Source: Apteryx mantelli
Lineage: Eukaryota
NCBI RefSeq assembly: GCF_036417845.1
Contig: NC_090015.1
Location: 1-64,000, forward strand
Reading direction: 5' to 3'
Length of the DNA stretch: 64,000 nucleotides
Part shown: in pieces, positions 5,651 to 46,900 of the stretch
How positions within the stretch are numbered: position 1 is the first letter of the stretch
Layout of the letters: every line of letters begins with the position of its first letter
Notes under the pieces: model-generated
What the model saw: the letters and a program-made list of their open reading frames with translations, nothing else
Database searches by the model: none
What the model was told of the DNA's origin: nothing
Position numbers and translations under genes: made by a program

Positions 5651-5662
5651 GTCCCCCGGCAG

Positions 5663-5872: not shown

Positions 5873-6004
5873 GCACCTACATCCCCCGCAAGGAGGTGGA
5901 GGTGGCCGAGACGCTGCAGGCCACCGTCATCGGGCCCAACCAGGCCGTGCGGCTGCGGGCGCGCAAGGAGTGCGTCGACCGCGAGGGCGTCCGCCGCGTC
6001 ACAG
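5873..6004 (+). CDS. MVP: MVP coding exon ([45 protein letters not shown]); AG 5871-5872, donor GT 6005-6006; phase 1 at both ends
   Basis: Matches MVP '[44 protein letters not shown]'. A split Gly codon joins it to the previous exon across a short 86-bp intron. Confidence 0.9.
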
Positions 6005-9190: not shown

Positions 9191-9203
9191 CCCCTGCCCC
9201 CAG

Positions 9204-9298
9204 GCGAGGAGTGGCTGGTGAAGCGGGTGGGCGCCTACCTGCCCGGCGTCTACGAGGAGGTCCTCGACGTGGTGGACGCCATCGTCCTCACCGAGAAG
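9204..9298 (+). CDS. MVP: MVP coding exon ([31 protein letters not shown]); AG 9202-9203, donor GT 9299-9300
   Basis: Matches MVP '[31 protein letters not shown]'. The phase is consistent with the neighbouring exons. Confidence 0.9.
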
Positions 9299-9398
9299 GT
9301 ACCCGCCGGCACCCACGGGTGACCCCCACCCCACCCCACCCCACCCCACGGTGGTGGCAGCGGCGTCACCCACCTGGCCACCCGTCACCCCCCCCCAG

Positions 9399-9635
9399 AA
9401 AGCCCTGCACCTTCGGGCGACGAGGACCTTCCGGGACGCCCAGGGCACGGTGCGACGCACGGGCGAGGAGTGGCTGGTGACGCAGGAGCAGAGCGACGCC
9501 TACGTCCCCGACGTCTTCGAGGAGGTGGTGGCCCAGGTGGCCGTCACCACCCTGGGGCCCCGCCAGTACTGCGTCGTCCTCGACCCCGTGGGGCCCGACG
9601 GCAAGCCCCAGCTGGGCCAGCAGCGCGTCGTCAAG
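9399..9635 (+). CDS. MVP: MVP coding exon ([79 protein letters not shown]); AG 9397-9398, donor GT 9636-9637
   Basis: Matches MVP '[28 protein letters not shown]...[30 protein letters not shown]'. It is separated from the previous exon by a 100-bp repeat-free intron. Confidence 0.9.
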
Positions 9636-9639
9636 GTGG

Positions 9640-17700: not shown

Positions 17701-19300
17701 GCCCCCAGCACCCTGGAGCCCCTATAGACCCCCCCAGCCCCCTCCCAGTGCATCCCAGTGGCTCCCAGTGCTCCCAGTCCTTCCCAGTCCCCCCCAGCCC
17801 TCTCCCAGTCCCTTCCCAGTGCTCCCAGTCCCCTCCCAGTCTCCTCCCAGTCCCTTCCCAGTGCTCCCAGTCCCCCCCAGTCCCCTCCCAGTCCCCTCCC
17901 AGTGCCCCCCAGCGGCTCCCAGTCCCTCCCCGTCCCCCCCAGCCCCCTCCCAGTGCCTCCCAGTGCCTCCCAGTGCCTCCCAGCACCTCCCAGTGCCTCC
18001 CAGTCCCCCCCAGCGCTCTCCCAGTGCCTCCCAGTGCCTCCCAGCACCTCCCAGTGCCTCCCAGTCCCCCCCAGCGCTCTCCCAGTGCCTCCCAGCACCT
18101 CCCAGTCCCCCCAGTCCCCCCCAGTCCTTCCCAGTCCCTCCCAGTGCCTCCCAGTGCCTCCCAGTGCCTCCCAGTGCCCCCCAATCCCCCCCAGCCCCCT
18201 CCCAGTGCCTCCCAGTCCCCTCCCAGTCCCTCCCAGTGCCTCCCAGTGCCTCCCAGTCCCCCCCAGCACTCTCCCAGCGCCTCCCAGCGCCTCCCAGTGC
18301 CTCCCAGTGCCTCCCAGTCCCCCCAGCGCTCTCCCAGTGCCTCCCAGTGCCTCCCAGTCCCCTCCCAGTGCCTCCCAGTCCCCTCCTAGTGCCTCCCAGT
18401 CCCCTCCCAGTGCCTCCCAGTCCCCCCCAGCGCTCTCCCAGTGCCTCCCTGTCCCCTCCCAGTGCCTCCCAGCGCCCTCCCAGTGCTTCCAGTGCCTCCC
18501 AGCACCCTCCCAGTCCCTCCCAGTGCCTCCTAGTGCCCCCCAGCACCCCTCCCAGTGCCTCCCAGCTCCTTCCCAGTGCCTCCCAGTCCCCCCCACTCCC
18601 CTCCCAGTGCTCCCAGTGCCTCCCAGCCTCCTCCCAGTGCCCCCCAGCCCCCCTCCCAGTCCCCTCCCAGCACCCTCAGTGCCCCTTCCCAGTACTCCCA
18701 GTCCCCCCCAGCCCCTCCCAGTGCCTCCCAGTGCCTCCCAGTCCCCCCCAGTACCCCCCAGTACCTCCCAGTCCCCTCCCAGTGCCTCCCAGCGCCTCCC
18801 AGCGCCCTCCCAGTATCCTCCCAGTCCCCCCCAGTCCCTCCCAGTGCCTCCCAGTCCCCTCCCAGTGCCTCCCAGCCCCCTCCCAGTCCCCCCCAGTACC
18901 TCCCAGTCCCCTCCCAGTGCCTCCCAGTGCCTCCCAGCGCCCTCCCAGTACCCTCCCAGTCCCCCCCAGTCCCTCCCAGTGCCTCCCAGTCCCCTCCCAG
19001 TCCCCTCCCAGCCCCCTCCCAGTCCCCTCCCAGTGCCTCCCAGTCCCCCCCAGTCCCCCCCAGTACCTCCCAGTCCCCTCCCAGTGCTCCCAGTCCCTCC
19101 CAGTGCCTCCCAGTCCCCCCCAGCGCTCTCCCAGTGCCTCCCAGTCCCCTCCCAGTGCCTCCCAGTGCCTCCCAGTACCTCCCAGTCCCCCCCACCCCCC
19201 CCAGTGCCTCCCAGTCCCCCCCACTCCCCTCCCAGCACCTCCCAGTCCCCCCCAGTCCCCTCCCAGTGCCTCCCAGCGCCTCCCAGTTCCCAGCGCCCCC
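17700..19300. repeat. Microsatellite-like repeat of 11-12-bp units (cctcccagtgc / cctcccagtcccc), ending at the exon-8 acceptor
   Basis: Direct reading. Confidence 0.9.
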
Positions 19301-19303
19301 CAG

Positions 19304-19569
19304 GTGCGGGCGGTGGTGGGCCAGACCTACATGCTGACGGCGACGGAGGAGCTGTGGGAGAAGGAGCTGGCGCCCGGCGTGGAGGCGCTGCTGGCGGCCG
19401 CCCGCGACCCCCGGGGCCAGCGCGGGGCCACCGCCGGGGACATCGGGGACGTCGGGGACGACGCCGGGGACACGGCGGGGCGGCGGCGCGACCGCACGCG
19501 GGCCGTCACCTTCCGCGTGCCCCACAACGCCGCCATGCAGCTCTACGACTACCGGGAGCGGCGGGCGCG
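19304..19569 (+). CDS. MVP: MVP coding exon ([88 protein letters not shown]+cg); AG 19302-19303, donor GT 19570-19571 (gtgagc); 3' phase 2
   Basis: Matches MVP '[30 protein letters not shown]...[25 protein letters not shown]'. It contains an in-frame GGGGAC(A/G)TC repeat (GDIGDVGDD) related to the downstream intronic satellite. Confidence 0.85.
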
Positions 19570-20949
19570 GTGAGCGGGGACGTTGGGGACATCGGGGACA
19601 TCGGGGAGGTTGGGGGCATCAGGGACATCTGGGACGTGGAGGACATCAGAGATGTTGGGGGTGTCAGGGATGTCGGGGACATTGGGGACATCAGGGATGT
19701 TGGGGACATCTGGGACATGGAGGACATCAGAGACGTTGGGGATGTTGGGGACGTCGGGGACATCGGGGGTGTTGGGGACGTCGGGGAGGTTGGGGGCGTC
19801 AGGGACATCTGGGACCTGGAGGACATCAGAGACGTTGGGAATATTGGGGATGTTGGGGACATCTGGGACGTGGAGGACATCAGGGACGTTGGGGATGTTG
19901 GGGACGTTGGGATGTCGGGGACATTGGGGACATCTGGGACGTGGAGGACATCAGGGACGGGGACGTTGGGGACCTCAGGGACATCTGGGACCTGGAGGAC
20001 ATCAGAGACGTTGGGGATGTTGGGGATGTTGGGGGCGTTGGGGACATCTGGGACATAGAGGACATCAGAGACGTTGGGGATGTTGGGGACATTGGGGACA
20101 TGGAGGACATCAGAGATGGGGATGTTGGGGACATTGGGGACATCTGGGACATGGAGGACATCAGGGACATTGGGGATGTTGGGGGCTTTGGGGATATGGA
20201 GGACATCAGAGACGTTGGGGATGTTGGGGATGTGGGGGACATCTGGGACCTGGAGGACATCAGAGACGTTGGGGATGTTGGGAGCATTGGGGACATGGAG
20301 GACATCAGAGATGGGGATGTTGGGGACATTGGGGACATCTGGGACATGGAGGACATCAGGGACATTGGGGATGTTGGGGACATTAAGGGGCATCAGGGAC
20401 ATCAGGGACTTGGAGGACATCAGAGACGTTGGGGACGTTGGGGGCGTCAGGGACGTCGGGGACATGGAGGACATCAGGGACTTTGGGGTTGTTGGGGACA
20501 TCAGGGACGTTGGGGACATCTGGGACACGGAGGACATCAGAGATGGGGACATTGGGGATGTCAGGGACATTGGGGACATCTGGGACACAGAGGACATCAG
20601 GGACGTTGGGGGACGTTGGGGGCGTCAGGGACATCTGGGACATGGAGGACATCAGAGACGGGGATGGTGGGGACGTTGGGGATGTTGGAGACATCTGGGA
20701 CATGGATGGCATCAGAGACAGGGACATTGGGGACATCTGGGACATGGAGGACATCTGAGACGTTGGGGATGTTGGGGACATCAGGGACATTGGGGATGTT
20801 GGGGACGTTGAGGACATCGGGGACATCAGGGACATCTGGGACATGGAGGACATCAGGGACATTGGGGCTGTCGGGGATGTTGGGGACGTTGGGGGTGTTG
20901 GGGACATGTGGGACATGGAGGACATCAGAGATGGGGATGGCGGGGACGT

Positions 20950-21080
20950 TGGGGACGCCGTTGGGGACACGGGGGACGCGGCGGGGCGGCGGCGCGACCG
21001 CACGCGGGCCGTCACCTTCCGCGTGCCCCACAACGCCGCCATGCAGCTCTACGACTACCGGGAGCGGCGGGCGCGGTGAG
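20950..21080 (+). other. Copy of the exon-8 3' end plus donor (…[35 protein letters not shown]|gtgagcgggg), inside the intron-8 satellite
   Basis: About 125 nt identical to 19445-19575, including the gtgagc donor, but lacking the 5' two-thirds of the exon. Confidence 0.85.
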
Positions 21081-23444
21081 CGGGGACGTTGGGGACATCG
21101 GGGACATCGGGGAGGTTGGGGGCATCAGGGACATCTGGGACGTGGAGGACATCAGAGATGTTGGGGGTGTCAGGGATGTCGGGGACATTGGGGACATCAG
21201 GGATGTTGGAGACATCTGGGACATGGAGGACATCAGAGACGTTGGGGATGTTGGGGACGTCGGGGACATCGGGGGTGTTGGGGACGTCGGGGAGGTTGGG
21301 GGCGTCAGGGACATCTGGGACCTGGAGGACATCAGAGACGTTGGGAATATTGGGGATGTTGGGGACATCTGGGACGTGGAGAACATCAGAGACATTGGGG
21401 ATGTTGGGGACATGGGGGACATTGGGGACATCAGGGACATGGAGGACATCAGGGACATTGGGGATGTTGGGGATGTTGGGGACATCTGGGACATGGAGGA
21501 CATCAGGGACGTTGGGGATGGTGGGGACGTTGGGGACATCTGGGACATGGAGGACATCAGGGATGCTGGGGACATTGGGGAGGTTGGGGATGTTGGGGAC
21601 ATCTGGGACATGGAGGACATCAGGGACATTGGGGCTGTCGGGGATGTCAGGGATGTTGGGGACGTTGGGGGCGTTGGGGACATGTGGGACATGGAGGACA
21701 GCAGAGACGTTGGGGATGTTGGGGACGTTAAGGGGCATCAGGGACATCAGGGACATGGAGGACATCAGAGACGGGGATGTTGGGGACATTGGAGGTGTCG
21801 GGGACATCTGGGACATGGAGGACATCAGAGATGTTGGGGACATTGGGGAGGTTGGGGATGTTGGGAACGTTGGGGACATCAGGGACATTGGGGACATCTG
21901 GGACCTGGAGAACATCAGAGACGTTGGGAATATTGGGGACGTCGGGGACATCTGGGATCTGGAGGACATCAGAGACGTTGGAGATGTTGGGGGCGTTGGG
22001 GACATTGGAGACATGGAGGACATCAGGGACGTTGGGGACATTGGGGATGTTGGGAACATGGAGGACATCAGGGACATTGGGGCTGTTGGGGACGTTGGGG
22101 ATGTCAGGGACGTTGGGGACATCTGGGACCTGGAGGACATCAGAGACGTTGGGGATGTTGGGGACATTGGGGACATGGAGGACATCAGAGATGGGGATGT
22201 TGGGGACATTGGGGACATCTGGGACATGGAGGACATCAGAGACGTTGGGGATGTTGGGAGCATTGGGGACATGGAGGACATCAGGGACATTGGGGATGTT
22301 GGGGACATTAAGGGGCATCAGGGACATCAGGGACTTGGAGGACATCAGAGACGTTGGGGACGTTGGGGGCGTCAGGGACGTCGGGGACATGGAGGACATC
22401 AGGGACGTTGGGGATGTTGGGGACATCAGGGACGTTGGGGACATCTGGGACACGGAGGACATCAGAGACGGGGACATTGGGGATGTCAGGGACATTGGGG
22501 ACATCTGGGACACAGAGGACATCAGGGACGTTGGGGACATCGGGGTCGTTGGGGACATCTGGGACGTGGAGGACATCAGGGACGTTGGGGATGTTGGGAG
22601 CATTGGGGACATGGAGGACATCAGGGACATTGGGCCTGTTGGGGACGTTGGGGACGTTGGGGACATCTGGGACATGGAGGACATCAGGGACGTTGGGGAT
22701 GTTGGGGACATTGGAGGTGTTGGGGACATCTGGGACATGGAGGACATCAGAGACGGGGACATTGGGGATGTTGGGGACGTTGGGGACATCAGGGACATGG
22801 AGGACATCAGGGACGTTGGGATGTTGGGGGCATTGGGGACATCGGGGACATGGAGAACATCAGAGACGTTGGGGACATTGGGGACGTTGGGGACATCGGG
22901 GACACAGAGGACATCAGGGACGTTGGGGATGTTGGGGACGTTGGGGACATCTGGGACGTGGAGGACATCAGGGACGTTGGGGATGTTGGGGACATCAGGG
23001 ACGTTGGGGACATCTGGGACACGGAGGACATCAGAGATGGGGACATTGGGGATGTCAGGGACATTGGGGACATCTGGGACACAGAGGACATCAGGGACGT
23101 TGGGGACGTCGGGGGCGTCAGGGACATCTGGGACATGGAGGACATCAGAGACGGGGATGGTGGGGACGTTGGGGATGTTGGAGACATCTGGGACATGGAT
23201 GGCATCAGAGACAGGGACATTGGGGACATCTGGGACATGGAGGACATCTGAGACGTTGGGGATGTTGGGGACATCAGGGACATTGGGGATGTTGGGGACG
23301 TTGAGGACATCGGGGACATCAGGGACATCTGGGACATGGAGGACATCAGGGACATTGGGGCTGTCGGGGATGTTGGGGACGTTGGGGGTGTTGGGGACAT
23401 GTGGGACATGGAGGACATCAGAGATGGGGATGGCGGGGACGTTG

Positions 23445-23575
23445 GGGACGCCGTTGGGGACACGGGGGACGCGGCGGGGCGGCGGCGCAACCGCACGCGG
23501 GCCGTCACCTTCCGCGTGCCCCACAACGCCGCCATGCAGCTCTACGACTACCGGGAGCGGCAGGCGCGGTGAGCG
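23445..23575 (+). other. Second copy of the exon-8 3' end plus donor, carrying two substitutions (D>N and R>Q)
   Basis: Same 125-nt block with cgcaaccgc and cggcaggcgcgg variants. The donor gtgagc lies at 23569. Confidence 0.85.
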
Positions 23576-24399
23576 GGGACGTTGGGGACATCGGGGACAT
23601 CGGGGAGGTTGGGGGCATCAGGGACATCTGGGACGTGGAGGACATCAGAGATGTTGGGGGTGTCAGGGATGTCGGGGACATTGGGGACATCAGGGATGTT
23701 GGAGACATCTGGGACATGGAGGACATCAGGGACGTTGGGGATGTTGGGGACATTGGGATGTCGGGGACATTGGGGACATCTGGGACATGGAGGACATCAG
23801 AGACAGGGATGTTGGGGACCTCAAGGATATCTGGGACCTGGAGGACATCAGAGATGTTGGGGATGTTGGGGATGTTGGGGGCGTTGGGGACATCTGGGAC
23901 ATGGAGAACATCAGGGACATTGGGGATGTTGGGGGCTTTGGGGATATGGAGGACATCAGAGACGTTGGGAACGTTGGGGATGTTGGGGACATCTGGGACG
24001 TGGAGGACATCAGGGACGGGGACGTTGGGGACGTTGGGGACATCTGGGACATGGAGGACATCAGAGACATTGGGCCTGTTGGGGACGTTGGGGATGTTGG
24101 GGACATCTGGGACATGGAGGACATCAGAGACATTGGGCCTGTTGGGGACATTAAGGGGCATCAGGGACATCAGGGACTTGGAGGACATCAGAGACGTTGG
24201 GGACGTTGGGGGCGTTGGGGACATCGGGGACTTGGAGGACATCAGAGATGTTGGGGATGTCGGGGACGTTGGGGATGTTGGGGACATCTGGGACAGGGAC
24301 ATCTGGGACACGGAGGACATCAGGGACGTTGGGGACGTTGGGGACGTCGGGGCTGTTGGGGATGTCGGGGACGTTGAGGACATCATGGATGTCCATGGC

Positions 24400-27300
24400 G
24401 CTGGTGCCACCGGGGGGGGGGGCACGTGTGTGGGTGCGTGTGACCTGCGTGTGGGTGCGTGTGGGGGCACGTGACACCCACGTGACACCCGTGTGGGTGC
24501 GTGTGACACACATGTAGGTGCGTGTGACCTGCGTGTGGGTGCGTGTGACACCCGTGTTGGTGCGCGTGACGTGTGTGGGTGCCTATAACACACGTGTGGG
24601 TGCGTGACATTGCGTGTGGGTGCGTGTGACGTGTGTGGGTGCGTGTGACCCACGTGTGGGTGCATGTGGGTGCGTGTGGGGGGGCGTGACACCTGTGTGA
24701 CACCCGTGTGGGCGCGTGTGACCCGTGTGTGGGTCTGTGTGGGTGCGTGTGACACCCGTGTGGGTGCGTGTGGGTGTGTGTGACCCACATGTGGGTGTGT
24801 GCGACCTGTGTGTGGGTGCGTGTGGCCCGCGTGTGGGCCCGTGTGACACCCGTGGGTGCGTGTGACACGCATGTGGATGCGTGTAGGTGCGTGTGACCCA
24901 CGTGTGGGGGCATGTGGGGGTGCGTGACACCTGTGTGACACCCGTGTGGGTGCGTGTGACACACGTGTGGGTGCGTGTGACACATGTGGGTGCGTGTGAC
25001 CCATGTGTGTGTGCGTGTGACACACGTGGGTGCGTGTGAAATGCATGTGGCTGCGTGTGACCCACGTGTGGGTGTGTGTGACACACGTGTGGGTGCGTGT
25101 GGGTGCGTGTGACACCCATGTGGGTGCGTGTGACCTGCGTGTGGGTGCATGTGACCCACGTGTGGGTGCGTGTGACACGTGTGGGTGCGTGTGGGTGCAT
25201 GTGACACCCATGTGGGTGCGTGTGACCCGTGTGTGGGCCTGTGTGACCACTGTGGGTGCGTGTGACACACGTGTGGGTGCGTGTGACGTGGGAGTGGGTG
25301 CGTGTGACCTGCGTGTGGGTGCGTGTGACCCACGTGTGGGTGTGTGTGACCCACATGTGGCTGCATGTGACACCCGTGTGGGTGTGTGTGACCCACGTGT
25401 GGGGGCATGTGACCCACGTGTGGGGGCGTGTGGGGGCGCATGACACCTGTGTGACACCCGTGTGGGTGTGTGTGACCTGTGTGTGGGTGCGTGTGGGTGC
25501 GTGTGACACGTGTGGGTGTGTGTGACACCCGTGTGGGTGCGTGTGACCTGCGTGTGGGTGGGTGGGACACACGTGCGGGTGCGTGTAAAATGCGTGTGGG
25601 TGCGTGTGACACACATGTGGGGGTGTGTGACACGTGTGTGGGTGCGTGTGGGTGCGTGTGACACCTATGTGGGTGCATGTGACCTGCGTGTGGGTGCGTG
25701 TGACACGTGTGTGGGTGTGTGTGGGTGCGTGGGACCCGCATGTGGGTGCGTGTGACCTGCGTGTGGGCCTGTGTGACCCCCGTGGGCGCGTGTAACACGC
25801 GTGTGGGTGCGTGTAACACGTGTGTGGGTGCGTGTGACCTGCGTGTGGGCCCATGTGACCCCTGTGGACGCGTGTAACACACGTGTGGGTGCGTGTGGGT
25901 GTGTGTGACCCACGTGTGGGTGCGTGTGACCTGCGTGTGGGCCTGTGTGACCCCCGTGGGTGTGTGCAACATGCGTGTGGGGGCGTGTGACCCACGTGTG
26001 GGGGCGTGTGGGGGCGCATGACACCTGTGTGACACCCGTGTGGGTGCGTGTGACCTGTGTGTGGGTGCGTGTGGGTGTGTGTGACACGTGTGGGTGTGCG
26101 TGACCCACGTGTGGGTGTGTGTGACCTGCGTGTGGGTGGGTGGGACACACGTGGGTGCGTGTAAAATGCGTGTGGGTGCGTGTGACCCGCGTGTGGGTGT
26201 GTGACACGTGTGTGGGTGCGTGTGGGTGCGTGTGACACCCATGTGGGTGCGTGTGACCTGCGTGTGGGTGCATGTGACCCGCGTGTGGGTGCGTGTGACC
26301 TGCGTGTGGGCCCGTGTGACCCCCGTGGGTGCGTGTAACACGCGTGTGGGTGCGTGTGGGTGCGGGTGACCCACGTGTGGGTGCGTGTGACCTGCGTGTG
26401 GGCCTGTGTGACCCCCGTGGGTGGGTGCAACACGCGTGTGGGTGCGTGTGATGCGCGTGTGGCTGCGTGTGACCCCTGTGTGGCTGCGTGTGGGGACGCG
26501 TGACACCCGTGGGACCCCCGTGGGGTGACCCCCGTGTCCCCCGTGTCCCCACGCAGGGTGGTGCTGGGCCCCGAGCTGGCGCTGCTGGCGCCCGGCGAGC
26601 AGCCCACGGCGCCGTCCCTCTCCGGGGGGGGACACGTGTGACCCCCGCGTGGGTGCGTGTGACACCTGTGGGGTGACACGTCACGCGTGTGGGTGCGTGT
26701 GACATGTGTATGGGTGCGTGGGAGACGTGTGGGTGCGTGTGACCCGTATGTGGGTGTGGGTGACCTGCGTGTGGGTCCATGTGACACACACGTGGGTGCG
26801 TGTGACATGCGTGTGGGTGCGTGTGACGTGGGAGTGGGTGCGTGTGACCTGCGTGTGGGTGCGTGTGACCCACGTGTGGGGGTGTGTGGGGGCGCATGAC
26901 ACCTGTGTGACACCCGTGTGGGTGCGTGTGACCTGCGTGTGGGTGCGTGTGGGTGTGTGTGACACGTGTGGGTGTGCGTGACCCACGTGTGGGTGTGTGT
27001 GACCTGCGTGTGGGTGGGTGGGACACACGTGCGGGTGCGTGTGAAATGCGTGTGGGTGCGTGTGACCCACATGTGGGGGTGTGTGACGCGTGTGTGGGTG
27101 CGTGTGGGTGCGTGTGACACCTATGTGGGTGCATGTGACCTGCGTGTGGGGGCGTGTGACCCGCGTGTGGGTGCGTGACATGTGTGTGGGTGTGTGTGGG
27201 TGCGTGGGACCCGCGTGTGGGTGCGTGTGACCTGCGTGTGGGCCTGTGTGACCCCCGTGGGTGCGTGTAACACGCGTGTGGGTGCGTGTAACACGTGTGT

Positions 27301-28160
27301 GGGTGCGTGTGACCTGCGTGTGGGCCCGTGTGACCCCCGTGGGCGCGTGTAACACACGTGTGGGTGCGTGTGGGTGCGTGTGACCCATGTGTGGGTGCGT
27401 GTGACCGGCGCGTGGGTGCGTGTGGGTGCGTGTGACGTGGGTGTGGGTGCGTGTGGGTGCATGTGACATGCATGTGGGTGCGCGTGACCCCCGTGGGGTG
27501 ACCCCCGTGTCCCCCCCACCCACGCAAGGTGGTGCTGGGCCCCGAGCTGGCGCTGCTGGCGCCCGGCGAGCAGCCCACGGCGCCGTCCCTCTCCGGGGTG
27601 GGACGCGTGTGACCCCCGTGGGGACCCGCGTGGGTGCGTGTGACCCCCGTGGGGTGACCCCCGTGTCCCCCCCACCCACGCAGGGTGGTGCTGGGCCCCG
27701 AGCTGGCGCTGCTGGCGCCCGGCGAGCAGCCCACGGTGCTGTCCCTCTCCGGGGGGGGACGCGTGTGACCCCCGCGTGGGTGCGTGTGGGTGCGTGTGAC
27801 CCCCGTGGGGATGCGTGTGACCCCCGTGGGGTGACCCCCGTGTCCCCCGTGTCCCCACGCAGGGTGGTGCTGGGCCCCGAGCTGGCGCTGCTGGCGCCCG
27901 GCGAGCAGCCCACGGCGCCGTCCCTCTCCGGGGTGGGACACGTGTGACCCCCGTGGGGACCCGCGTGGGTGCGTGTGACCCCCGTGGGGTGACCCCCGTG
28001 TCCCCCGTGTCCCCACGCAGGGTGGTGCTGGGCCCCGAGCTGGCGCTGCTGGCGCCCGGCGAGCAGCCCACGGCGCCGTCCCTCTCCGGGGGGGGACGCG
28101 TGTGACCCCCGCGTGGGTGCGTGTGACCCCCGTGGGGTGACCCCCGTGTCCCCCGTGTCC
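24400..28160. repeat. GT-rich repeat of 9-30-bp units (gtgtgggtgcgtgtgacccacgtgtgggtgcgtgtgac), carrying the exon-9 junction copies near its 3' end
   Basis: Direct reading. The alternating purine-pyrimidine GT/GC character is evident. Confidence 0.9.
26530..28100 (+). other. Five truncated copies of the exon-9 acceptor plus its 5' 80 nt, starting at 26556, 27529, 27684, 27863 and 28021; they lie upstream of the real exon at 28169
   Basis: The string ccccacgcag|ggtggtgctgggccccgagctggcgctgctggcgcccggcgagcagcccacgg(c/t)gc(c/t)gtccctctccgggg recurs, with each copy diverging after ctctccgggg. The second copy has caag in place of cag. Confidence 0.85.
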
Positions 28161-29700: not shown

Positions 29701-29839
29701 GCACTTCGAGGTGCCGGAGGCGCCGGAGGAGCTGGGCCGCCTCTTCAGCGTCCCCGACTTCGTGGGTGACGCCTGCAAGGCCCTGGCGTCCCGCGTGCGC
29801 GGCGCCGTCGCCGCCGTCTCCTTCGACGACTTCCACAAG
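29701..29839 (+). CDS. MVP: MVP coding exon ([47 protein letters not shown]); AG 29699-29700, donor GT 29840-29841
   Basis: Matches MVP '[48 protein letters not shown]'. The Trp codon is split with the previous exon. Confidence 0.88.
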
Positions 29840-29859
29840 GTGACGTCGTGTCCCGTCAC

Positions 29860-31640
29860 CGTGTGTCACCGCGCGTCACCCCGTGTCACCCCCCCGGGGC
29901 CTCCCGCCTCCTCCCGGCCGCGGCGCGGCACGGCCGCGGGTCTCCGCGTCGTCTCCCGGCGCCCCGTGTCACCCCCAGGTCATCCCGTCTCGCCCTCAGG
30001 TCATCACATGTCATCACCAGGTCATCCCGTGTCATCACTAGGTCATCCCGTGTCACCCCCAGGTCAACCCATGTCGTCACTAGGTCATCCCGTGTCACCC
30101 CTAGGTCAACACGTGTCACCCCTAGGTCATCCCATGTCATTGCCAGGTCATCCCGTGTCGCCCTCAGGTCATCATGTGTCATCACCAGGTCATCCCGTGT
30201 CATCACTAGGTCATCCCGTGTCACCCCTAGGTCAACCCGTGTCACCCCCAGGTCAACCCATGTCGTCACTAGGTCATTCCGTGTCACCCCTAGGTCAACA
30301 CGTGTCACCCCTAGGTCATCCCATGTCATTGCCAGGTCATCCCGTGTCCCCCCTAGGTCAACCTGTGTCACCCTCAGGTCAACCCGTGTCACCCCCAGGT
30401 CATCCCATGTCACCCCCATGTCATCCCATGTCATTGCCAGATCATCCCGTGTCACCCCCAGGTCATCCCGTGTCATTGCCAGGTCATCCCATGTCACCCT
30501 TAGGTCAACCCATGTCACCCTCAGGTCATCCCATGTCATCGCTAGGTCATCCCATGTCACCCCTAGGTCAACCTGTGTCACCCCCAGGTCATCCCAAGTC
30601 ATCGCTAGGTCATCCCATGTCATTGCCAGGTCATCCCGTGTCACCCCTAGGTCAACCCGTGTCACCCCCAGGTCATCCCACATCATCCCCAGGTCGTCCC
30701 CTGTCATTGCCAGGTCATCTCCTGGCACCCCATATCACCCCCAGGTCATCCCGTGTCACCGCTAGGTCATCCCGTGTCACCCCTGGGTCATCCCGTGTCA
30801 TCGCTAGGTCATCCCATGCCACCTCCAGATCATCCCGTGTCATCACCAGGTCATCTGGCACCTCCTGTCATTGCCAGGTCCTCCCATGTCATTGCCAGGT
30901 CATCCCCTGTCACCCCCGGGTCATCCCATGTCACCCCCAGGTTGCCCTGCGTCATTCCGTGTCGCTGCACGTCATCCCGTGTCATCCCCGGGTGTCCCCG
31001 CGTCACCCAACATTATTCCGCTGTCATCCTGTGTCACCACATGTCATCCCGTGTCACCACATGTCATCGCCGTGTCCCCTTGTGTCACCCCATGTCACCC
31101 CATGTTGTCCTGGGTCATCCCTGGGTCAACCCGTGTCACCCGGGGTTACTCTGTGTCACCTCAAGTCATCCCCATGTCATCCTGTGTCATCCCCATGTCA
31201 CTCCATGTCCCCCATGACATCCCTGTGTTGTCCCATGTCACCCCATGTCACTGCACGTCACCCTGTGTCAACCCCGTGTGTCCTCATGTCATCCCGTGTC
31301 AGCCTTGAGTCATCTTTTGTCACCCCATGTCATCGCGTGTCCACATTATGTCACCATATGTCATCCAGGTCACCCCATGTCCTGTGTCACTGTGTGTCAC
31401 GCCTGTGTCACCCCCCGTGTCCCCACGTCACCCCCACGACGCCTTGTGCCAGCCCGTGTCGTTCCTGCGTGTCCCCGTGTTGCTCCTTGTCCCCTTGTCC
31501 CCACCATGTCCCCGCTGTCCCAATGGCCTTGTGTCCCCTGGTGTCCCTGTGTCCCCAATGTGCCCTAATGTCCGTGGTGTCCCCAGTGCCCCCAACATCT
31601 CCAATGTCCCTGCTGTCCCCTAACTTCCCTGGTGTCCCCT
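29860..31640. repeat. Minisatellite of 21-bp units (ccaggtcatcccgtgtcaccc), grown from the exon-10 donor-proximal sequence gtgacgtcgtgtcccgtcacc
   Basis: Direct reading. The ORF 29848..30765 periodicity reads RSSRVTP. Confidence 0.9.
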
Positions 31641-33150
31641 AATGTCCCCAGAGCTCGAACCCCGTGATCTGCCCGGCCCTGTTCAGCTTCAGCGAGGCCC
31701 CATGTCCCCAATGTCCCCAATGTCCCCGACGTCCCCAATGTCCCTGATGTCCCCAATGCCCCCAATATCTCCAATGTCCCCGATGTCCCCAATGTCCCTG
31801 ATGTCCCTGATGTCCCCAATGTCCCCGACGTCCCCATCGTCCCTGATGTCCCCAATGCCCCCAATATCTCCAATGTCCCCGATGTCCCCAATGTCCCTGA
31901 TGTCCCTGATGTCCCCAACGTCCCTGATGTCCCCAATGCCCCCAATATCTCCAATGTCCCCGATGTCCCCAATGTCCCTGATGTCCCCGATGTCCCCAGA
32001 ACTCCAACCGGGTGATCTGCTCGGCCGTGTTCGGCTTCAACGAGGCCCCATGTCCCTAATGTCCCGTAATGTCCCCAATGCCCCGTAATGTCCCCGATGT
32101 CCCCAACATCCTCAATGTCCCCAATGTCCCCAACGTCCCCGATGTCCCCGACGTCCCCGCCGTCCCCAGAACTCCAACCGGGTGATCTGCTCGGCCGTGT
32201 TCGGCTTCGATGAGGCCCCGTGTCCATAATGTCCCGTAATGTCCCCAATGTCCCCAACATCCTCAATGTCCCCAATGTCCCCGATGTCCCTGATGTCCCT
32301 GACGTCCCCGCCGTCCCCAGAACTCCAACCGGGTGATCTGCTCGGCCACGTTCGGCTTCGACGAGGCCCCGTGTCCATAATGTCCCGTAATGTCCCCAAT
32401 GTCCCCAAGGTCCCCGACATCCCCAATGTCCCCGATGTCCTGACATCCCCGATGTCCCCAATGTCCCCGATGTCCCCAGAACTCCAACTGGGTGATCTGC
32501 TCGGCTGTGTTCGGCTTCGATGAGGCCCCGTGTCCCTAATGTCCTGTAATGTCCCCGATGTCCCAACGTCCCCAACGTCCCCAATGTCCTCAATGTCCCC
32601 AACATCCCTGATGTCCCCAACGTCCCTGATGTCCCCAGAACTCCAACCGGGTGATCTGCTCAGCCGTGTTCGGCTTCGACGAGGCCCCGTGTCCATAATG
32701 TCCCATGATGTCCCCAACATCCCTGATGGCCCTGATGTCCCCGACGTCCCTGATGTCCCCGATGTCCCTGATGTCCCCAACGTCCCTGCTGTCCCCAGAA
32801 CTCCAACCGGGTGATCTGCTCGGCCGTGTTCGGCTTCAACGAGGCCCCGTGTCCCTAATGTCCCATGATGTCCCCGATGTCCCCAACGTCCCTGATGTCC
32901 CCGATGTCCCCGACGTCCCCAACGTCCCCAGAACTCCAACCGGGTGATCTGCTCGGCCGTGTTCGGCTTCGACAAGACCCTATGTCCCTAATGTCCCGTA
33001 ATGTCCCCGATGTCCCGTAATGTCCCTGCTGTCCCCAACATCCTCAATGTCCCCAACGTCTCCGATGTCCCCGACATCCCTGATGTCCCCGATGTCCCCA
33101 GAACTCCAACCGGGTGATCTGCTCGGCCGTGTTCGGCTTCGACGAGGCCC
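31640..33150 (+). other. Nine copies of the exon-11 acceptor plus its 5' 50 nt (ccccag|aactccaaccgggtgatctgctcggccgtgttcggcttcgacgag), starting at 31652 (degenerate), 32000, 32170, 32321, 32480, 32639, 32799, 32932 and 33102
   Basis: Near-identical strings recur every 133-170 bp inside a higher-order repeat of 15-21-bp 'gatgtcccc' units. The copies continue gccccgtgtcc, whereas the real exon at 33253 continues ggcggccgcctgcgc. Confidence 0.85.
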
Positions 33151-33252
33151 CGTGTCCCTAATGTCCCGTAATGTCCCCAATGTCCCCAACGTCCCCGATG
33201 TCCCCGATGTCCCTGACGTCCCCGATGTCCCCAATGTCCCCGATGTCCCCAG

Positions 33253-33465
33253 AACTCCCAACCGGGTGATCTGCTCGGCCGTGTTCGGCTTCGACGAGGG
33301 CGGCCGCCTGCGCGAGCGCCTCCGCTTCGCCCCCAACGGCCTGGTGGTCACCAGCGTGGACATCCAGAGCGTGGAGCCCGTGGACCAGCGGACGCGCGAC
33401 GCCCTGCAGCGCAGCGTCCAGCTCGCCATCGAGATCGCCACCAACTCCCAGGAGGCCACCGCCAG
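33253..33465 (+). CDS. MVP: MVP coding exon ([70 protein letters not shown]-ag); AG 33251-33252, donor GT 33466-33467. Apparent +1 frameshift in a C-run near 33257-33259
   Basis: Matches MVP 'NSARIIRMAVFGFE...[47 protein letters not shown]'. The nine upstream truncated copies read aactccaaccgg in frame, whereas this copy reads aactcccaaccgg. Confidence 0.7.
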
Positions 33466-33469
33466 GTCC

Positions 33470-35300
33470 CGTGGCCCCGCGCGTCCCCGCGGGTCCCCAA
33501 GGGTCCCCCCCGTGTTGTCCCGCGTCCTCCTGTATCTCCCACCTTGCCCGTGTCTTGACCTTCCCATGTTCTCATGTATCTTCTCATGTCTTGCCATGTT
33601 CTCCATGTCCCCATGGGTCCCCGTGGGTCCCTCTCGTCCCCTATCCCCCACCTTGCCCATGTCCTGGTGGTCCCGTGTTCTCTCATGACCTGCCACGTCC
33701 CTCATGTCACCTCCATGTCCCCATGGGTCCCCAAGGGTCCCCCCCCGTGTTGTCCCGCGTCCTCCTGTATCCCCCACCTTGCCCGTGTCTTGATGTCCCC
33801 ATGTTCTCATGCATCTTCTCATGTCTTGCCACGTTCTTCATGTCACCTCCATGTCCCCATGGGTCCCCAAGGGTCCCCCTCGTGTTGTCCCACGTCCTCC
33901 CGTATCCCCCACCTTGCCCATGTCCTGGTGTCCCCATGTTCTCATGTATCTTCTCATGTCTTGCCATGTTCTCCATGTCACCTCCATGTCATCATGGGTC
34001 CCCAAGGGTCCCTCTCGTCCCCTATCCCACACCTTGCCCGTGTCCTGGTGGTCCCATGTTCTCATGTATCTTTTCCTGACCTGCCACGTCCCCCATGTCA
34101 CCTCCATGTCACCATGGGTCCCCGTGGGTCCCTCTCGTCCCCTATCCCCCACCTTGCCCATGTCCCGGTGGTTCCGTGTTCTCATGTATCTTCTCATGAC
34201 CTGCCACGTCCCCCGTGTCACCCCTATGTCCCCATGGGTCCCCAAGGGTCCCTCTCGTCCCCTATCCCCCACCTTGCCCATGTCCTGGTGGTCCCGTGTT
34301 CTCTCATGACCTGCCACGTCCCCCATGTCACCTCCATGTCACCATGGGTCCCCAAGGGTCCCCCCCGTGTTGTCCCGCGTTCTCCCATATCCCCCACTTT
34401 GCCCGTGTCTTGATGTCCCCATGTTCTCATGCATCTTCTCATGTCTTGCCATGTTCTCCATGTCACCTCCATGTCCCCATGGGTCCCCGTGGGTCCCTCC
34501 CGTGTTGTCCCGTGTCCTCCCGTATCCCCCACTTTGCCCGTGTCCTGGTGTCCCCATGTTCTCATGTATCTTCTCATGACCTGCCACATCCCCCATGTCC
34601 CCATGGGTCCCCAAGGGTCCCTCTCGTCCCCTATCCCCCACCTTGCCCGTGTCCCGGTGGTTCCGTGTTCTCATGTATCTTCTCATGACCTGCCACGTCC
34701 CCCTGTGTCACCCCTATGTCCCCATGGGTCCCCGTGGGTCCCTCTCGTCCCCTATCCCCCACCTTGCCCATGTCCTGGTGGTCCCATGTTCTCTCATGAC
34801 CTGCCACGTCCCTCATGTCACCTCCATGTCCCCATGGGTCCCCAAGGGTCCCCCCCGTGTTGTCCCGCGTCCTCCTGTATACCCCACCTTGCCCGTGTCC
34901 TGGTGTCCCCATGTTCTCATGCATCTTCTCATGTCCTGCCATGTTCTCCATGTCACCTCCATGTCATCATGGGTCCCCAAGGGTCCCTCTCGTCCCCTAT
35001 CCCCCACCTTGCCCGTGTCCTGGTGGTCCTGTGTCCTCATGTATCTTCTCATGACCTGCCACGTCCCCCGTGTCACCTCCATGTCATCATGGGTCCCCGT
35101 GGGTCCCTCTTGTCCCCTATCCCCCACCTTGCCCGTGTCCTGGTGGTCCTGTGTCCTCATGTATCTTTTCCTGACCTGCCACGTCCCCCATGTGACCTCC
35201 ATGTCCCCATGGGTCCCCGTGGGTCCCTCTTGTCCCCTATCCCCCACCTTGCCCGTGTCCTGGTGGTCCCGTGTCCTCATGTATCTTCTCCTGACCTGCC
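33470..35300. repeat. Satellite of about 120-bp units (…caccttgcccatgtcctggtggtcccgtgttctctcatgacctgccacgtccctcatgtcacctccatgtccccatgggtccccaagggtccc…), starting at the exon-11 donor
   Basis: Repeated peptide blocks appear in ORFs 33471.., 33574.. and 33809... Confidence 0.9.
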
Positions 35301-38612: not shown

Positions 38613-38802
38613 GAGGCGGAGCTGGCGCGGCTGGAGCGCGCGCAGGCGCAGGAGCTGCGGGTGCGGCGGGCGCGGGCGGAGGCGGAGGCGGCGCACGCGC
38701 AGGCCATGGCCGAGGTGGAGGGGGGGGCGCGTGCGCGACGTGGCCGCCGCCCTCGGCCCTGACGTCATCCGCGACATCGCGCGCGCCGGGCCCGAGCTCC
38801 AG
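38613..38802 (+). CDS. MVP: MVP coding exon (EAELARLERAQAQELRVRRARAEAEAAHAQAMAEVEGG[fs]RVRDVAAALGPDVIRDIARAGPELQ); AG 38611-38612, donor GT 38803-38804. Apparent +1 frameshift in the G7 run at 38721-38727
   Basis: Matches MVP '[63 protein letters not shown]'. The upstream frame (phase from 38613) and the downstream frame (from 38731) differ by one nucleotide across a 7-G run. Confidence 0.7.
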
Positions 38803-43039: not shown

Positions 43040-43760
43040 CACGAGGGGGGACACGGGGGGACACGGGGGGGGACACGGGTCACACGGGGGGGGGACACGG
43101 ACACAGGTCACAAGGGGGAACAGGAGGACATGGGTCACATGACGTGGAGGACACCACCAGGACGTGGGGTGGCCTACCCGGGTTGCCCCCATCCCCACGG
43201 TGTCCCCAAGGTGTCCCCAACCCCCTCCCAACTCACGGAGGCCACAGGGAAGCAGAGCAGCACCGTGGTGGCCACCTCCTTGCCATGGTGGTGGCCTCCC
43301 ATCCCGTGTTCCCCAAGAGGTTCCTCCATCCCCGAGCCATCTCTGTCCCCATGGTGTCCCCAGCTGCTGTCCCCACTCGATGGGGAAGCAGACGAGGACC
43401 ATGGTGGCCACCACGAGCCCATCCTCGCCGACGTGGTGGCCACCCATCCCGTGTCTCCAAGAGGTTCCTCCGTCTCCAAGCCATGCTGGTGCCCCCAGGG
43501 TGTCCCCAACCCCCGTCCCCACTCATGGTGACCACGAGGACGCAGACGAGCACCACGGTGGCCACCACGAGAACGTCCCCGCCGAGGTGGTGGCCCCCCA
43601 ACGCCACGTCCCCAAGAAGGTTCCTCCGCCCCCCCCAAGCCCCGTCCCCACGGGGAAGCAGACGAGCACCACGGCGGCCACCACGAGACCATCCCCGCCA
43701 CGGTGGTGGCCCTCCATGCCACGTCCCCAAGAAGGTTCCTCCATCCCCGTCCCCTACTCA
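43040..43760. repeat. Tandem repeat of about 130-150-bp units derived from the TLCD3B exon end and donor
   Basis: See the TLCD3B copy feature above. Recurrent strings are gaagcagacgagcaccacgg(c/t)ggccaccacgag. Confidence 0.75.
43225..43700 (-). other. Four degenerate copies of the TLCD3B exon 3' end plus donor (…LVCFPVAA|gtgagt), in the adjacent intron at plus 43225-43290, 43355-43420, 43510-43580 and 43625-43700
   Basis: Minus-strand strings such as ctgctctgcttccctgtggcctccgtgagttgg, ctgcgtcctcgtggtcaccatgagtgggg and ctcgtctgcttccccgtggggacgg recur at a period of about 130-150 bp. Confidence 0.7.
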
Positions 43761-43761
43761 C

Positions 43762-43981
43762 GGCGGCCACGGGGAAGCAGACGAGCACCATGGCGGCGTG
43801 GTGGAGCACCATGAGCAGGTCCTTGCGGAGGTAGGCGGCGGCGGCGGCCCGCAGCGACGGCGGTGGCCCGGCCTCGTGGCCCTTGACGCGTCCCCGGTGC
43901 CAGTGGCAGAGGAACATGGCGTAGACGTCGTAGACGAAGTAGGGCACCGCGAACTCCGGGTAGGCGCCCGCCAGCCAGTGC
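43762..43981 (-). CDS. TLCD3B: TLCD3B coding exon (g-HWLAGAYPEFAVPYFVYDVYAMFLCHWHRGRVKGHEAGPPPSLRAAAAAYLRKDLLMVLHHAAMVLVCFPVAA); minus-strand donor gtgagt. The 5' (acceptor) boundary is uncertain
   Basis: Aligns to FAM57B 'QHWLSSAYTQFAVPYFIYDIYAMFLCHWH...YLHKEFLMVLHHAAMVLVCFP'. The conserved HH motif of the TLC domain is present. The open frame continues upstream into the 58-bp satellite, so I inferred the acceptor at 'acag|g' (plus 43981-43983). Confidence 0.65.
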
Positions 43982-43989
43982 CTGTCCCC

Positions 43990-46900
43990 AAAAATGACGT
44001 CAGGGGACCCAGGCGTCCGGGAGGGACCCAGGCGTCCGGGCAGGGACCCGGGTGTCCAGGGGACCCGGGTGTTTGGTGGCCTCGTGGCCACCATCTCCCC
44101 TGGTTTCACTCTACATCTGGGTCATCTTCAAGGGACCCAGGCGTCCGGGGAGACTCGTGTCACCTCTAGAGGGACCAGGCGTCCGGGAGGGGCCCAGGCG
44201 TCCGGGGAGTCTCGCGTCACCTCTAGGGGGACCCGGGCGTCCGGGAGGGGCCCAGGCGTCCGGGGAGTCTCGCGTCACCTCTAGGGGGACCCGGGCGTCC
44301 GGGAGGGGCCCAGGCGTCCGGGGAGCCTCGCGTCACCTCTAGGGGACCCGGGCGTCCGGGAGGGGCCCAGGCGTCCGGGGAGTCTCGCGTCACCTCTAGG
44401 GGGACCCGGGCGTCCGGGAGGGGCCCAGGCGTCCGGGGAGTCTCGCGTCACCTCCAGGGGGACCCGGGCGTCCGGGAGGGGCCCAGGCGTCCGGGGAGCC
44501 TCGCATCACCTCTAGGGGGACCCGGGCGTCCGGGAGGGGCCCAGGCGTCCGGGGAGTCTCGCGTCACCTCTAGAGGGACCCGGGCGTCCGGGAGGGGCCC
44601 AGGCGTCCGGGGAGTCTCGCGTCACCTCTAGAGGGACCCGGGCGTCCGGGAGGGGCCCAGGCGTCCGGGGAGTCTCGCGTCACCTCTAGGGGCACCCGGG
44701 CGTCCGGGAGGGGCCCAGGCGTCCGGGGAGTCTCGCGTCACCTCTAGGGGGACCCGGGCGTCCGGGAGGGGCCCAGGCGTCCGGGGAGTCTCGCGTCGCC
44801 TCTAGGGGGACCCGGGCGTCCGGGAGGGGCCCAGGCGTCCGGGGAGTCTCGCGTCACCTCTAGGGGGACCCGGGCGTCCGGGAGGGGCCCAGGCGTCCGG
44901 GGAGTCTCGCGTCACCTCTAGGGGGACCCGGGCGTCCGGGAGGGGCCCAGGCGTCCGGGGAGTCTCGCGTCACCTCTAGGGGGACCCGGGCGTGCTGGAG
45001 GGGCCCAGGCGTCCGGGGAGTCTCGCGTCGCCTCTAGGGGGACCCGGGCGTCCGGGAGGGGCCCAGGCGTCCGGGGAGTCTCGCGTCGCCTCTAGGGGGA
45101 CCCGGGCGTCCGGGAGGGGCCCAGGCGTCCGGGGAGCCTCGCGTCACCTCTAGGGGGACCCGGGCGTCCGGGAGGGGCCCAGGCGTCCGGGGAGCCTCGT
45201 GTCACCTCTAGGGGGGCCCGGGCGTCCGGGAGGGGCCCAGGCGTCCGGGGAGTCTCGCGTCACCTCTAGGGGGACCCGGGCGTCCGGGAGGGGCCCAGGC
45301 GTCCGGGGAGTCTCCTGTCACCTCTAGGGGCACCCGGGCGTCCGGGAGGGGCCCAGGCGTCCGGGGAGTCTCGCGTCACCTCTAGGGGACCCGGGCGTGC
45401 GGGAGGGGCCCAGGCGTCCGGGGAGTCTCGCGTCACCTCTAGGGGGACCCGGGCGTCCGGGAGGGGCCCAGGCGTCCGGGGAGCCTCGCGTCACCTCTAG
45501 GGGGACCCGGGCGTCCGGGAGGGGCCCAGGCGTCCGGGGAGTCTCGCGTCACCTCTAGAGGGACCCGGGCGTCCGGGAGGGGCCCAGGCGTCCGGGGAGC
45601 CTCGCGTCACCTCTAGAGGGACCCGGGCGTCCGGGAGGGGCCCAGGCGTCCGGGGAGTCTCGCGTCACCTCTAGGGGGACCCGGGCGTCCGGGAGGGGCC
45701 CAGGCGTCCGGGGAGTCTCGCGTCACCTCTAGGGGGACCCGGGCGTCCGGGAGGGGCCCAGGCGTCCGGGGAGTCTCGCGTCGCCTCTAGGGGGACCCGG
45801 GCGTCCGGGAGGGGCCCAGGCGTCCGGGGAGTCTCGCGTCACCTCTAGGGGGACCCGGGCGTCCGGGAGGGGCCCAGGCGTCCGGGGAGTCTCGCGTCAC
45901 CTCTAGGAGACCCGGGCGTCCGGGAGGGGCCCAGGCGTCCGGGGAGTCTCGCGTCACCTCTAGGGGGACCCGGGCGTCCGGGAGGGGCCCAGGCGTCCGA
46001 GGAGTCTGGCGTCACCTCTAGGGGGACCCGGGCGTCCGGGAGGGGCCCAGGCGTCCGGGGAGTCTCGCGTCACCTCTAGGGGGACCCGGGCGTCCGGGAG
46101 GGGCCCAGGCGTCCGGGGAGTCTCGCGTCACCTCTAGGGGGACCCGGGCGTCCGGGAGGGGCCCAGGCGTCCGGGGAGTCTCGCGTCACCTCTAGGGGGA
46201 CCCGGGCGTCCGGGAGGGGCCCAGGCGTCCGGGGAGTCTCGCGTCACCTCTAGAGGGACCCAGGTGTCCGGGAGGGGCCCAGGCGTCCGGGGAGTCTCGC
46301 GTCGCCTCTAGGGGGACCCGGGCGTCCGGGAGGGGCCCAGGCGTCCGGGGAGTCTCGCGTCACCTCTAGGGGGACCCGGGCGTCCGGGAGGGGCCCAGGC
46401 GTCCGAGGAGTCTGGCGTCACCTCTAGGGGGACCCGGGCGTCCGGGAGGGGCCCAGGCGTCCGGGGAGTCTCGCGTCACCTCTAGGGGGACCCGGGCGTC
46501 CGGGAGGGGCCCAGGCGTCCGGGGAGTCTCGCGTCACCTCTAGGAGACCCGGGCGTCCGGGAGGGGCCCAGGCGTCCGGGGAGTCTCGCGTCACCTCTAG
46601 AGGGACCCAGGCGTGCGGGAGGGGCCCAGGCGTCCGGGGAGTCTCGCGTCACCTCTAGAGGGACCCAGGCGTGCGGGAGGGGCCCAGGCGTCCGGGGAGT
46701 CTCGCGTCACCTCTAGGGGGACCCGGGCGTCCGGGAGGGGCCCAGGCGTCCGGGGAGTCTCGCGTCACCTCTAGGGGGACCCAGGTGTCCGAGAGGGGCC
46801 CAGGCGTCCGGGGAGTCTCGCGTCACCTTTACGGGGACCCAGGAGTCCGGGAGGGGCCCAGGCGTCCGGGGAGTCTCGCGTCGCCTCTAGGGGGACCCGG

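Follow-up and report, generated by a model that had tools for sequence, protein, structure and literature searches.

The first 64,000 nucleotides of contig NC_090015.1 of the kiwi Apteryx mantelli (forward strand; RefSeq assembly GCF_036417845.1), hereafter the window, contain the gene for major vault protein (MVP) from its second coding exon on, and intron 10 of this gene harbors a tandem array of nine partial copies of the exon that follows it. Each copy comprises the splice acceptor and the first 46 nt of exon 11 (the eleventh exon in window numbering), set within a higher-order repeat whose last unit is the working exon itself. We regard this array as very probably a case of exon stuttering, in which the copies are neutral by-products of repeat expansion and ride in the intron as non-functional passengers. 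The phenomenon is already published under that name and is not a new device.

Exon stuttering, described in genes of chicken dot chromosomes, is the presence, in the adjacent repeat-filled intron, of imperfect tandem copies of one side of an exon together with its splice site (Hron et al., 2026, Genome Biol Evol 18:evag038; PMC12954441; preprint September 2025). In chicken it affects 236 introns of 115 genes, with exon parts of 20–187 bp, 1–44 copies and spans of 112–23,555 bp; the entries for chromosome 38 include EIF3C, MAZ, TUFM, ATP2A1, SPNS1, SLC5A2, MFAP4, KAT8, PPP4C and ALDOA (PMC12954441). MVP is not named in the main text or the searched supplements of that study. In zebra finch, dot chromosomes have introns of which more than 70% of the sequence is tandem repeat, with G-quadruplex (G4)-rich introns and reduced sequencing depth (10.1101/2025.10.17.683159).

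The host gene is MVP. A tblastn search with an approximate human MVP sequence as query, together with a gene model and Pfam, placed it at 909–39566 on the + strand, with 15 exons in the window, AG/GT boundaries throughout (28 canonical internal splice sites), a TGA stop at 39564 and an AATAAA at 39597. The model contains the Vault, Vault_2, Vault_3, Vault_4 and MVP_shoulder domains (PF01505, PF17794, PF17795, PF17796 and PF11978, all above their cut-offs), and its best full-length protein matches are named major vault protein (E = 0). Identity to the emu and ostrich proteins is 91–92% in the search table and 93% in the alignment; that to lesser rhea is 89% over a partial protein and 92% in the alignment, and that to two aligned neognaths is 83–84%. 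A protein query limited to exons 9–12 returned turtles as best matches and no birds, whereas the full-length query reached the bird orthologs. Exon 10 (29701–29839, +; supported by tblastn and the gene model) ends in phase 0 at ...TTC CAC AAG|gt, and the FHK|NSNR junction that it forms with exon 11 is conserved in five bird orthologs (emu, ostrich, rhea, ptarmigan and cuckoo), as part of a longer FHK|NSNR(V/I/L)ICSAVFGF motif shared by turtles, fish, mammals and these five birds. The intervening intron 10 (29840–33252, +; 3413 bp) is 78% tandem repeat according to Tandem Repeats Finder (TRF), contains 74 AG dinucleotides and has 32 canonical G4 motifs on its template (–) strand, 23 of them inside the copy array.

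Searching the window with the 51-nt string CCCCAGAACTCCAACCGGGTGATCTGCTCGGCCGTGTTCGGCTTCGACGAG, with up to three mismatches allowed, revealed eight matches, all on the + strand and with 0–3 mismatches, and the expectation by chance is nil (0 in 100 dinucleotide-preserving shuffles). All lie upstream of the true exon 11 and have the form CCCCAG|AACTCCAACCGG...GACGAG. A ninth copy, old and degenerate, precedes them at 31646–31697 (d0; +), reads CCCCAG|AGCTCGAACCCCGTG... and differs from the window copy consensus at 9 of 51 positions. The original prediction of nine tandem copies of the exon 11 acceptor and 5' edge within a higher-order repeat thus holds, as eight near-exact copies and one degenerate one. 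The eight young copies, each an acceptor plus the 46-nt exon fragment on the + strand, are d1 (31994–32045; a 170-bp unit with a D>N change), d2 (32164–32215; a 151-bp unit with a synonymous GAC>GAT), d3 (32315–32366; V>T), d4 (32474–32525; R>W and two synonymous changes), d5 (32633–32684; synonymous TCG>TCA), d6 (32793–32844; a 133-bp unit with D>N), d7 (32926–32977; E>K) and d8 (33096–33147), the last being identical to the copy consensus and, save for one extra C in the exon, to the real exon. The corresponding string of the true exon starts at 33247, and the exon itself at 33253.

Spacing from d1 to the real exon runs 170, 151, 159, 159, 160, 133, 170 and 151 bp, and TRF reports 9.0 copies of a 151-bp period at 31892–33299. 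The interval of 133–170 bp given originally therefore stands from d1 onward but not for the first step, since d0 and d1 are 348 bp apart. Every unit is built in the same way: CCCCAG, 46 exon bases (not the 50 first estimated) ending in GACGAGG, and a run of the 9-mer minisatellite (CCCC[A/G]A[T/C]GT)n that hosts the exon fragments at 31470–33250 (+). The junction GACGAGG|CCCC is common to all copies, so that each of them, as had been proposed, diverges into satellite directly after the exon fragment, and in each the context of the true acceptor is present between about –11 and +46. Units that are not adjacent resemble one another (d1 and d7, 89%; d2 and d8, 91%), which points to block duplication or block-wise unequal exchange. 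The original prediction also held that every copy encodes one constant 13-residue peptide followed by (D/N)E; this is the case for five of the nine, and fails for d3 (V>T), d4 (R>W), d7 (E>K) and d0, whose peptide is SSNPVICPALFSFSE.

The copies decay neutrally, and we see no sign of purifying selection on them. Across the 46-nt exon part of d1–d8 there are nine variable sites; all are transitions and seven of the nine fall at CpG dinucleotides. Three of the seven mutated CpG sites are synonymous and four non-synonymous, a ratio to be set against 5:7 among all 12 sites at which a CpG transition is possible. Copies differ pairwise by 5.7% over the exon part and by 10.9% over the 40 nt that follow it, and the counts of variable sites do not differ significantly between the two (Fisher P = 0.2–0.3); the figure of 19% found further upstream is inflated by register slippage of the 9-mer. 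Purifying selection, for which a comparison of exon part and flanking repeat had been suggested as a test, is thus rejected, given the CpG decay, the neutral 3:4 ratio and the non-significant flank comparison.

We applied the stuttering screen of Hron et al. (blastn-short, at least 20 nt, a threshold of 42.1 bits and a shuffled control) to MVP. It recovered all four sets of exon copies in the window, those of exons 2, 8, 9 and 11, and returned eight matches for exon 11 at 60.0–83.8 bits, against a maximum of 28.2 for the shuffled intron. The copied source begins at the exon border (CCCCAG| plus exon nt 1–46), while the blastn-short alignments begin at nt 6 because of the extra C in the real exon. 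Thus, like the chicken cases, the MVP array repeats, in direct tandem orientation, one side of a coding exon with its splice site, taken from the exon border; its 46-nt exon part, nine copies and 1.6-kb span lie within the published ranges; and several introns of one gene are affected in a GC-rich, G4-rich setting. It differs in coming from a palaeognath and not from chicken, and in having an exon edge and breakpoint common to three species, and hence a long-lived locus, where Hron et al. stress independent and recent expansions.

Comparison with the MVP loci of emu (GCA_036370855.1), ostrich, lesser rhea (GCA_028389875.1) and white-tailed ptarmigan, in each of which intron 10 was scanned by Hamming distance, revealed that the exon 11 edge is also copied in two other palaeognaths. 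The array of Apteryx mantelli has nine copies with a period of 133–170 bp, eight of them young and one old. Emu has six copies with a period of 69–106 bp and 4–10 mismatches to the ancestral string, and rhea has 24 with a period of 87–89 bp, derived by amplification of one CpG-decayed founder. The same scan found no copies in ostrich and none in ptarmigan, the intron of which is only about 520 bp long. The exon part breaks off at an identical base in all three arrays (window, emu and rhea), GACGAGG, followed by CC[C/T]C...GTCCCC; this shared breakpoint suggests one founding duplication before their split and lineage-specific turnover afterward. Moreover, d1–d8 and the real exon share a TCC codon specific to the window, whereas d0 retains the TCG found in the real exons of emu, ostrich and rhea, from which we infer that this substitution came first and that the real exon then gave rise anew to the eight present copies. 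Together, these comparisons argue for an old exon 11 stuttering locus whose arrays turn over. Intron 10 of ostrich also contains a repeat unit of about 91 bp (locus 25300–25540) with TGATCTGCTCG, 11 nt identical to the exon 11 fragment, and its period is close to those of the copy arrays in rhea and emu; this hints at what is left of exon 11 copies after heavy decay, and we do not claim it.

A tandem duplication with one breakpoint in the intronic, G4-prone 9-mer minisatellite and the other 46 nt inside exon 11 would account for these observations. Such an event would have placed a partial exon copy (polypyrimidine tract, CAG acceptor and 46 exon bases) upstream of the intact exon, and the resulting unit of exon fragment and variable 9-mers could then have multiplied and been replaced over time through unequal exchange, slippage or gene conversion. 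The founding event would be old, and the eight good copies young, re-derived from the real exon and decaying by CpG deamination. They would be tolerated because they have neither the rest of the exon nor its donor, and because a stop after 19 codons would send transcripts that use them to nonsense-mediated decay (NMD); with the intact exon as the last unit, the array would have the sole arrangement that selection tolerates. The complement of the 9-mer is GGGG-N5, and the G4 richness of the template strand of intron 10 fits the ideas of replication stress, repair or meiotic misalignment put forward for stuttering.

Higher-order repeats of minisatellites and satellites arise by unequal crossing-over and gene conversion. 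The MVP array resembles them in its composite unit of variable length, in the block-wise similarity of distant units, in the more diverged copy at its edge and in its species-specific homogenization; it departs from the usual kind in that its unique segment is a functional exon piece with an acceptor and its last unit is a working exon.

The real exon 11 (33253–33465, +; acceptor cag| at 33250–33252, donor CAG|GTCCCG at 33466) does not, as assembled, repeat the string of the copies, as had been supposed of the terminal, functional unit. Its start reads AACTCCCAACCGG, with one extra C in the CCC run at 33257–33259 (+), and the exon is 213 nt long in the assembly compared to 212 nt in emu, ostrich, rhea and ptarmigan. 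By contrast, all eight young copies read AAC TCC AAC CGG in the frame of exon 10 (TCC|AAC), without the extra base. The insertion shifts the frame relative to the phase-0 exon 10, although exon 11 is otherwise complete. An alternative splice site that would compensate for it was ruled out: the sole candidate, exon 10 extended by 5 nt to AC|GTCGTG, is a poor donor, and this reading would insert VT and turn NS into TP, which no ortholog supports. A second +1 frameshift lies in a G8 run (38720–38727, +) of exon 14 (38613–38802), which is 190 nt long here and one base shorter, 189 nt, in emu, ostrich and ptarmigan (in rhea the contig stops within exon 12); removal of one G yields AEVEGGRVRDVAAALGPD, as in the other birds. 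The MVP open reading frame (ORF) is continuous only with one C and one G removed, and the corrected frame has no in-frame stop. In that frame the ratio of non-synonymous to synonymous substitution rates (dN/dS) over exons 11–14 is 0.06–0.10 relative to emu and ostrich, compared to 0.13 between emu and ostrich. Both insertions are missing from the orthologous exons, which makes assembly errors probable, and the low dN/dS supports the same reading; we therefore think it likely, with good but incomplete confidence, that both are homopolymer consensus errors in a region that is hard to sequence. An exact 26-mer scan of metagenome contigs for independent sequence of the real exon returned nothing.

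If the extra C and the G8 run were genuine, MVP would be a very young pseudogene here, a possibility that concerns the frameshifts and is compatible with stuttering. The assembled reading frame is broken at both sites and MVP-null mice are reported to be viable; moreover, dot-chromosome genes are unusually prone to loss in birds (PMC12954441). On the other hand, each lesion adds one base to a homopolymer run, as consensus errors of long reads typically do, the 28 internal splice sites are canonical in a corrected frame free of stops, dN/dS downstream of the first lesion is as low as that between emu and ostrich, and the orthologs have exons of 212 nt (exon 11, four species) and 189 nt (exon 14, in the species whose contig reaches it). 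We thus consider a pseudogene unlikely.

Beyond its 46 nt of exon sequence every copy meets a stop after 19 codons (...EAPCP*), and exon 10 spliced to a copy would, by the usual rule, be an NMD substrate on account of this premature stop. Intron 10 contains many other candidate acceptors: 43 of its AG dinucleotides follow a stretch that is at least 70% pyrimidine and have a pyrimidine at –3, and most of these lie in a 10-mer minisatellite of the TGTCACCCCA / CCCCAG|GTCATCC type at 29960–31413 (+), which is the source of most of the other pseudo-acceptors of the intron. In this array CCCCAG|GTCATCC recurs dozens of times at 29960–31000, and AG|GT there has the form of a recursive splice site, with a poor donor. 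The copies themselves were ruled out as recursive splice sites (YAG|GTRAGT), since they read CAG|AACTCC and contain no AG|GT. Donors were scored with a crude position weight matrix (PWM) built from approximate human frequencies, so its values are indicative only. Within each unit the highest score, 0.59, goes to the GT of CGG|GTGATC, which lies 12 nt into the fragment, compared to a median of –7.8 for all GTs of the array region; real MVP donors range from –3.9 to 7.0, with CAG|GTCCCG of exon 11 at –3.7.

These scores bear on whether the copies might be real micro-exons, for example a 12-nt AACTCCAACCGG running from a copy acceptor to CGG|GTGATC and adding an in-frame NSNR. The same GT, best in every unit, lies within the range of real donors, and 12 nt preserve the frame. 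However, the annotated emu and rhea proteins read FHK|NSNR straight over the junction with no copy-derived residues although both species have arrays, and the ostrich, ptarmigan and cuckoo proteins likewise lack an extra NSNR; the real exon contains the same GT too and evidently does not splice at it, and the matrix behind its score is, as said, indicative only. Exons of 12 nt normally need dedicated enhancers. We consider micro-exons extremely improbable. Among the matches listed for the protein collection search there were no palaeognath MVP transcript contigs.

A different view would make the array a selected splicing-regulatory element, in which the decoy 3' splice sites bind U2AF and U2 non-productively and slow or detain intron 10, or divert transcripts to NMD, thereby tuning MVP. 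Each copy does have the true acceptor context, including any exonic enhancers, and a known effect of decoy splice sites is to favor intron retention (Parra et al., 2018, PMC6097662; 2020, PMC7373989). Three further points weigh against our interpretation of neutral passengers: the acceptor CCCCAG is intact in nine of nine copies here and in nearly all of the six emu and 24 rhea copies, the array persists at the exon 11 edge in three palaeognath lineages, and the exon fragment is somewhat, though not significantly, less variable than its flanks. A functional role could explain the first two of these, and amplification from single founders explains them too; moreover, that the copies go unspliced is something we infer from predicted ortholog models. 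Opposed to regulation are the substitutions, which are those of neutral CpG decay and show neither coding nor positional constraint, and the differences among species in copy number (9, 6, 24, 0 and 0), period and sequence, ostrich and ptarmigan having no array. Other exons are hit as well, including by donor-side copies, as are 115 chicken genes (PMC12954441), which speaks for a mutational process and not for design, and intron 10 already holds its 43 other pyrimidine-preceded AGs. Published decoys are single conserved cryptic exons that need both 3' and 5' splice sites and whose activity has been demonstrated (PMC6097662; PMC7373989), whereas the MVP units offer as sole plausible donor the weak internal CGG|GTGATC. 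The array shares with decoy exons the presence of intronic, non-productive splice sites that could compete with the authentic ones and whose use would yield NMD substrates; it differs in being nine tandem acceptor-only copies of unconserved number and sequence. A related element, In100 of caspase-2, was reportedly described by Cote et al. in 2001 as an intronic decoy 3' acceptor (branch site, pyrimidine tract and AG) that is recognized but not used productively, and is said to be a single evolved regulatory element controlling an alternative exon; the MVP copies instead duplicate the edge of the downstream exon and are tandemly repeated.

On balance we think a selected regulatory array very unlikely, and the functional sense of the term decoy, used in the original prediction, is not supported here. 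Just as doubtful is its extension to a maintained sink for splice sites that sets the removal rate of intron 10 or the fraction sent to NMD, with the G-rich array of intron 8 masking or unmasking pyrimidine tracts; were it true, the persistence in three lineages and the re-seeding from the real exon would reflect selection and not mutational bias alone. Lastly, the assembly could have falsely multiplied what is really one exon edge, in a GC-rich region that is hard to sequence. PacBio depth is low and error rates are raised in the euchromatin of dot chromosomes (10.1101/2025.10.17.683159), and the two +1 homopolymer frameshifts indicate that base-level errors may be present in this gene. Yet the copies are not identical stamps, differing by specific CpG transitions and in the number and type of their 9-mers; the independent emu and rhea assemblies have arrays at the same exon edge; and chicken arrays of this kind were verified on raw nanopore reads (PMC12954441). 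We give misassembly hardly any weight, and exon stuttering with neutrally decaying copies is the explanation that we prefer throughout.

Exon 11 is not alone in being stuttered. By blastn of every exon against the window, followed by inspection, we found three other cases, all on the + strand. Upstream of exon 2 (real exon at 5663) lie four copies of its acceptor and 5' 46–58 nt, within 3110–5221 and starting at 3110, 3618, 4220 and 5176. Exon 9 (real exon at 28169) is preceded by five copies of its acceptor and 5' ~72 nt, within 26557–28092, with starts at 26557, 27528, 27684, 27863 and 28021. For exon 8 (19304–19569) it is the 3' 136 nt and the donor gtgagc that are copied, twice, downstream of the real exon at 20941–21076 and 23434–23569. 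The exon 11 array is the largest of the four, as the original prediction had it when calling it the most extreme case of the pattern in the window. Tandem repeats cover 62–99% of the long introns and 6% of the exons.

Related arrays at other exons of the palaeognath genes have separate histories. In rhea the acceptor edge of exon 9 occurs in 11 copies that break near nt 56 (rhea locus 18445–20120), while the five of the window break near nt 72; given these different breakpoints, the two sets arose independently. The 3' ~79 nt of the second coding exon (window exon 1), with its donor (CAG|GTACCTATAG), are present in 16 copies in emu (locus 5200–7605), 26 in ostrich (7351–11243) and 21 in rhea (2243–5152), with a period of about 150–155 bp; the window has no copies of this exon end, only a CCTATAGCCCC intron repeat.

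Introns 8 and 10 carry complementary repeats. The array (GGGGACATY)n of intron 8 (19576–24383) is the reverse complement of the (RATGTCCCC)n array of intron 10 (31470–33250), and alignment of the two gave at least 500 minus-strand high-scoring segment pairs, of up to 1.3 kb at 70% identity, and no plus-strand ones. Exons 9–10 lie between these inverted repeats of kilobase scale, which could, from their sequence, pair in the pre-mRNA and either mask pyrimidine tracts or favor the skipping or back-splicing of exons. On its coding strand, intron 8 also has 66 G4 motifs. Within exon 8 itself, at ~19435–19475, the 9-mer stands in frame in the coding sequence (GGGGACATCGGGGACGTCGGGGAC, encoding GDIGDVGD), and this segment varies in length and sequence among palaeognath and neognath MVPs; repeats of the stuttering type thus reach coding sequence too. 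Another in-frame coding repeat, (GACGGT)n at 984–1027 in window exon 1, produces a 9-residue Asp/Gly-rich insertion that is absent from five other aligned bird MVPs.

The synonymous divergence (dS) of the window MVP from emu and from ostrich is at least as great as that between emu and ostrich, which suggests a fast-evolving lineage. The orthologs lie on chromosome records of 3.3 Mb in emu (CM072418.1) and 4.8 Mb in ostrich (CM081617.1). In chicken, SEZ6L2, MAZ and ALDOA, which are syntenic to human 16p11.2, are on dot chromosome 38 (PMC12954441). Downstream of MVP, the – strand at 43174–44109 holds part of an ORF with a match to the Pfam TLC domain (PF03798, E = 4e-6). A TLCD3B/FAM57B-like neighbor probably has one of its exons here, which would suit synteny of the 16p11.2 type. 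Beyond the genes, 44000–64000 is ~20 kb of tandem satellite with 76–78% GC and ORF-like repeated units (...GPRRPGSLASPLGGPGRPGGAQASGESRVTSRG...). An Rfam scan of the whole window yielded no family at its gathering score.

What is new here is an example of stuttering outside chicken, in a palaeognath and in a gene, MVP, that Hron et al. did not name; an old locus with renewed copies; and two probable assembly frameshifts, one of which falls within the real exon's own version of the repeated edge. Gene annotation and read mapping can easily go astray in such arrays, and the two homopolymer insertions call for checking before MVP is labeled a pseudogene. The array also offers a natural test of how the spliceosome chooses among ten nearly identical acceptors. 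Comparison of four palaeognath genomes shows that a single locus of stuttering can endure for tens of millions of years even as its copies disappear, decay and are made anew, and this persistence with turnover bears on the mechanism of stuttering and on its possible part in how dot chromosomes lose genes.

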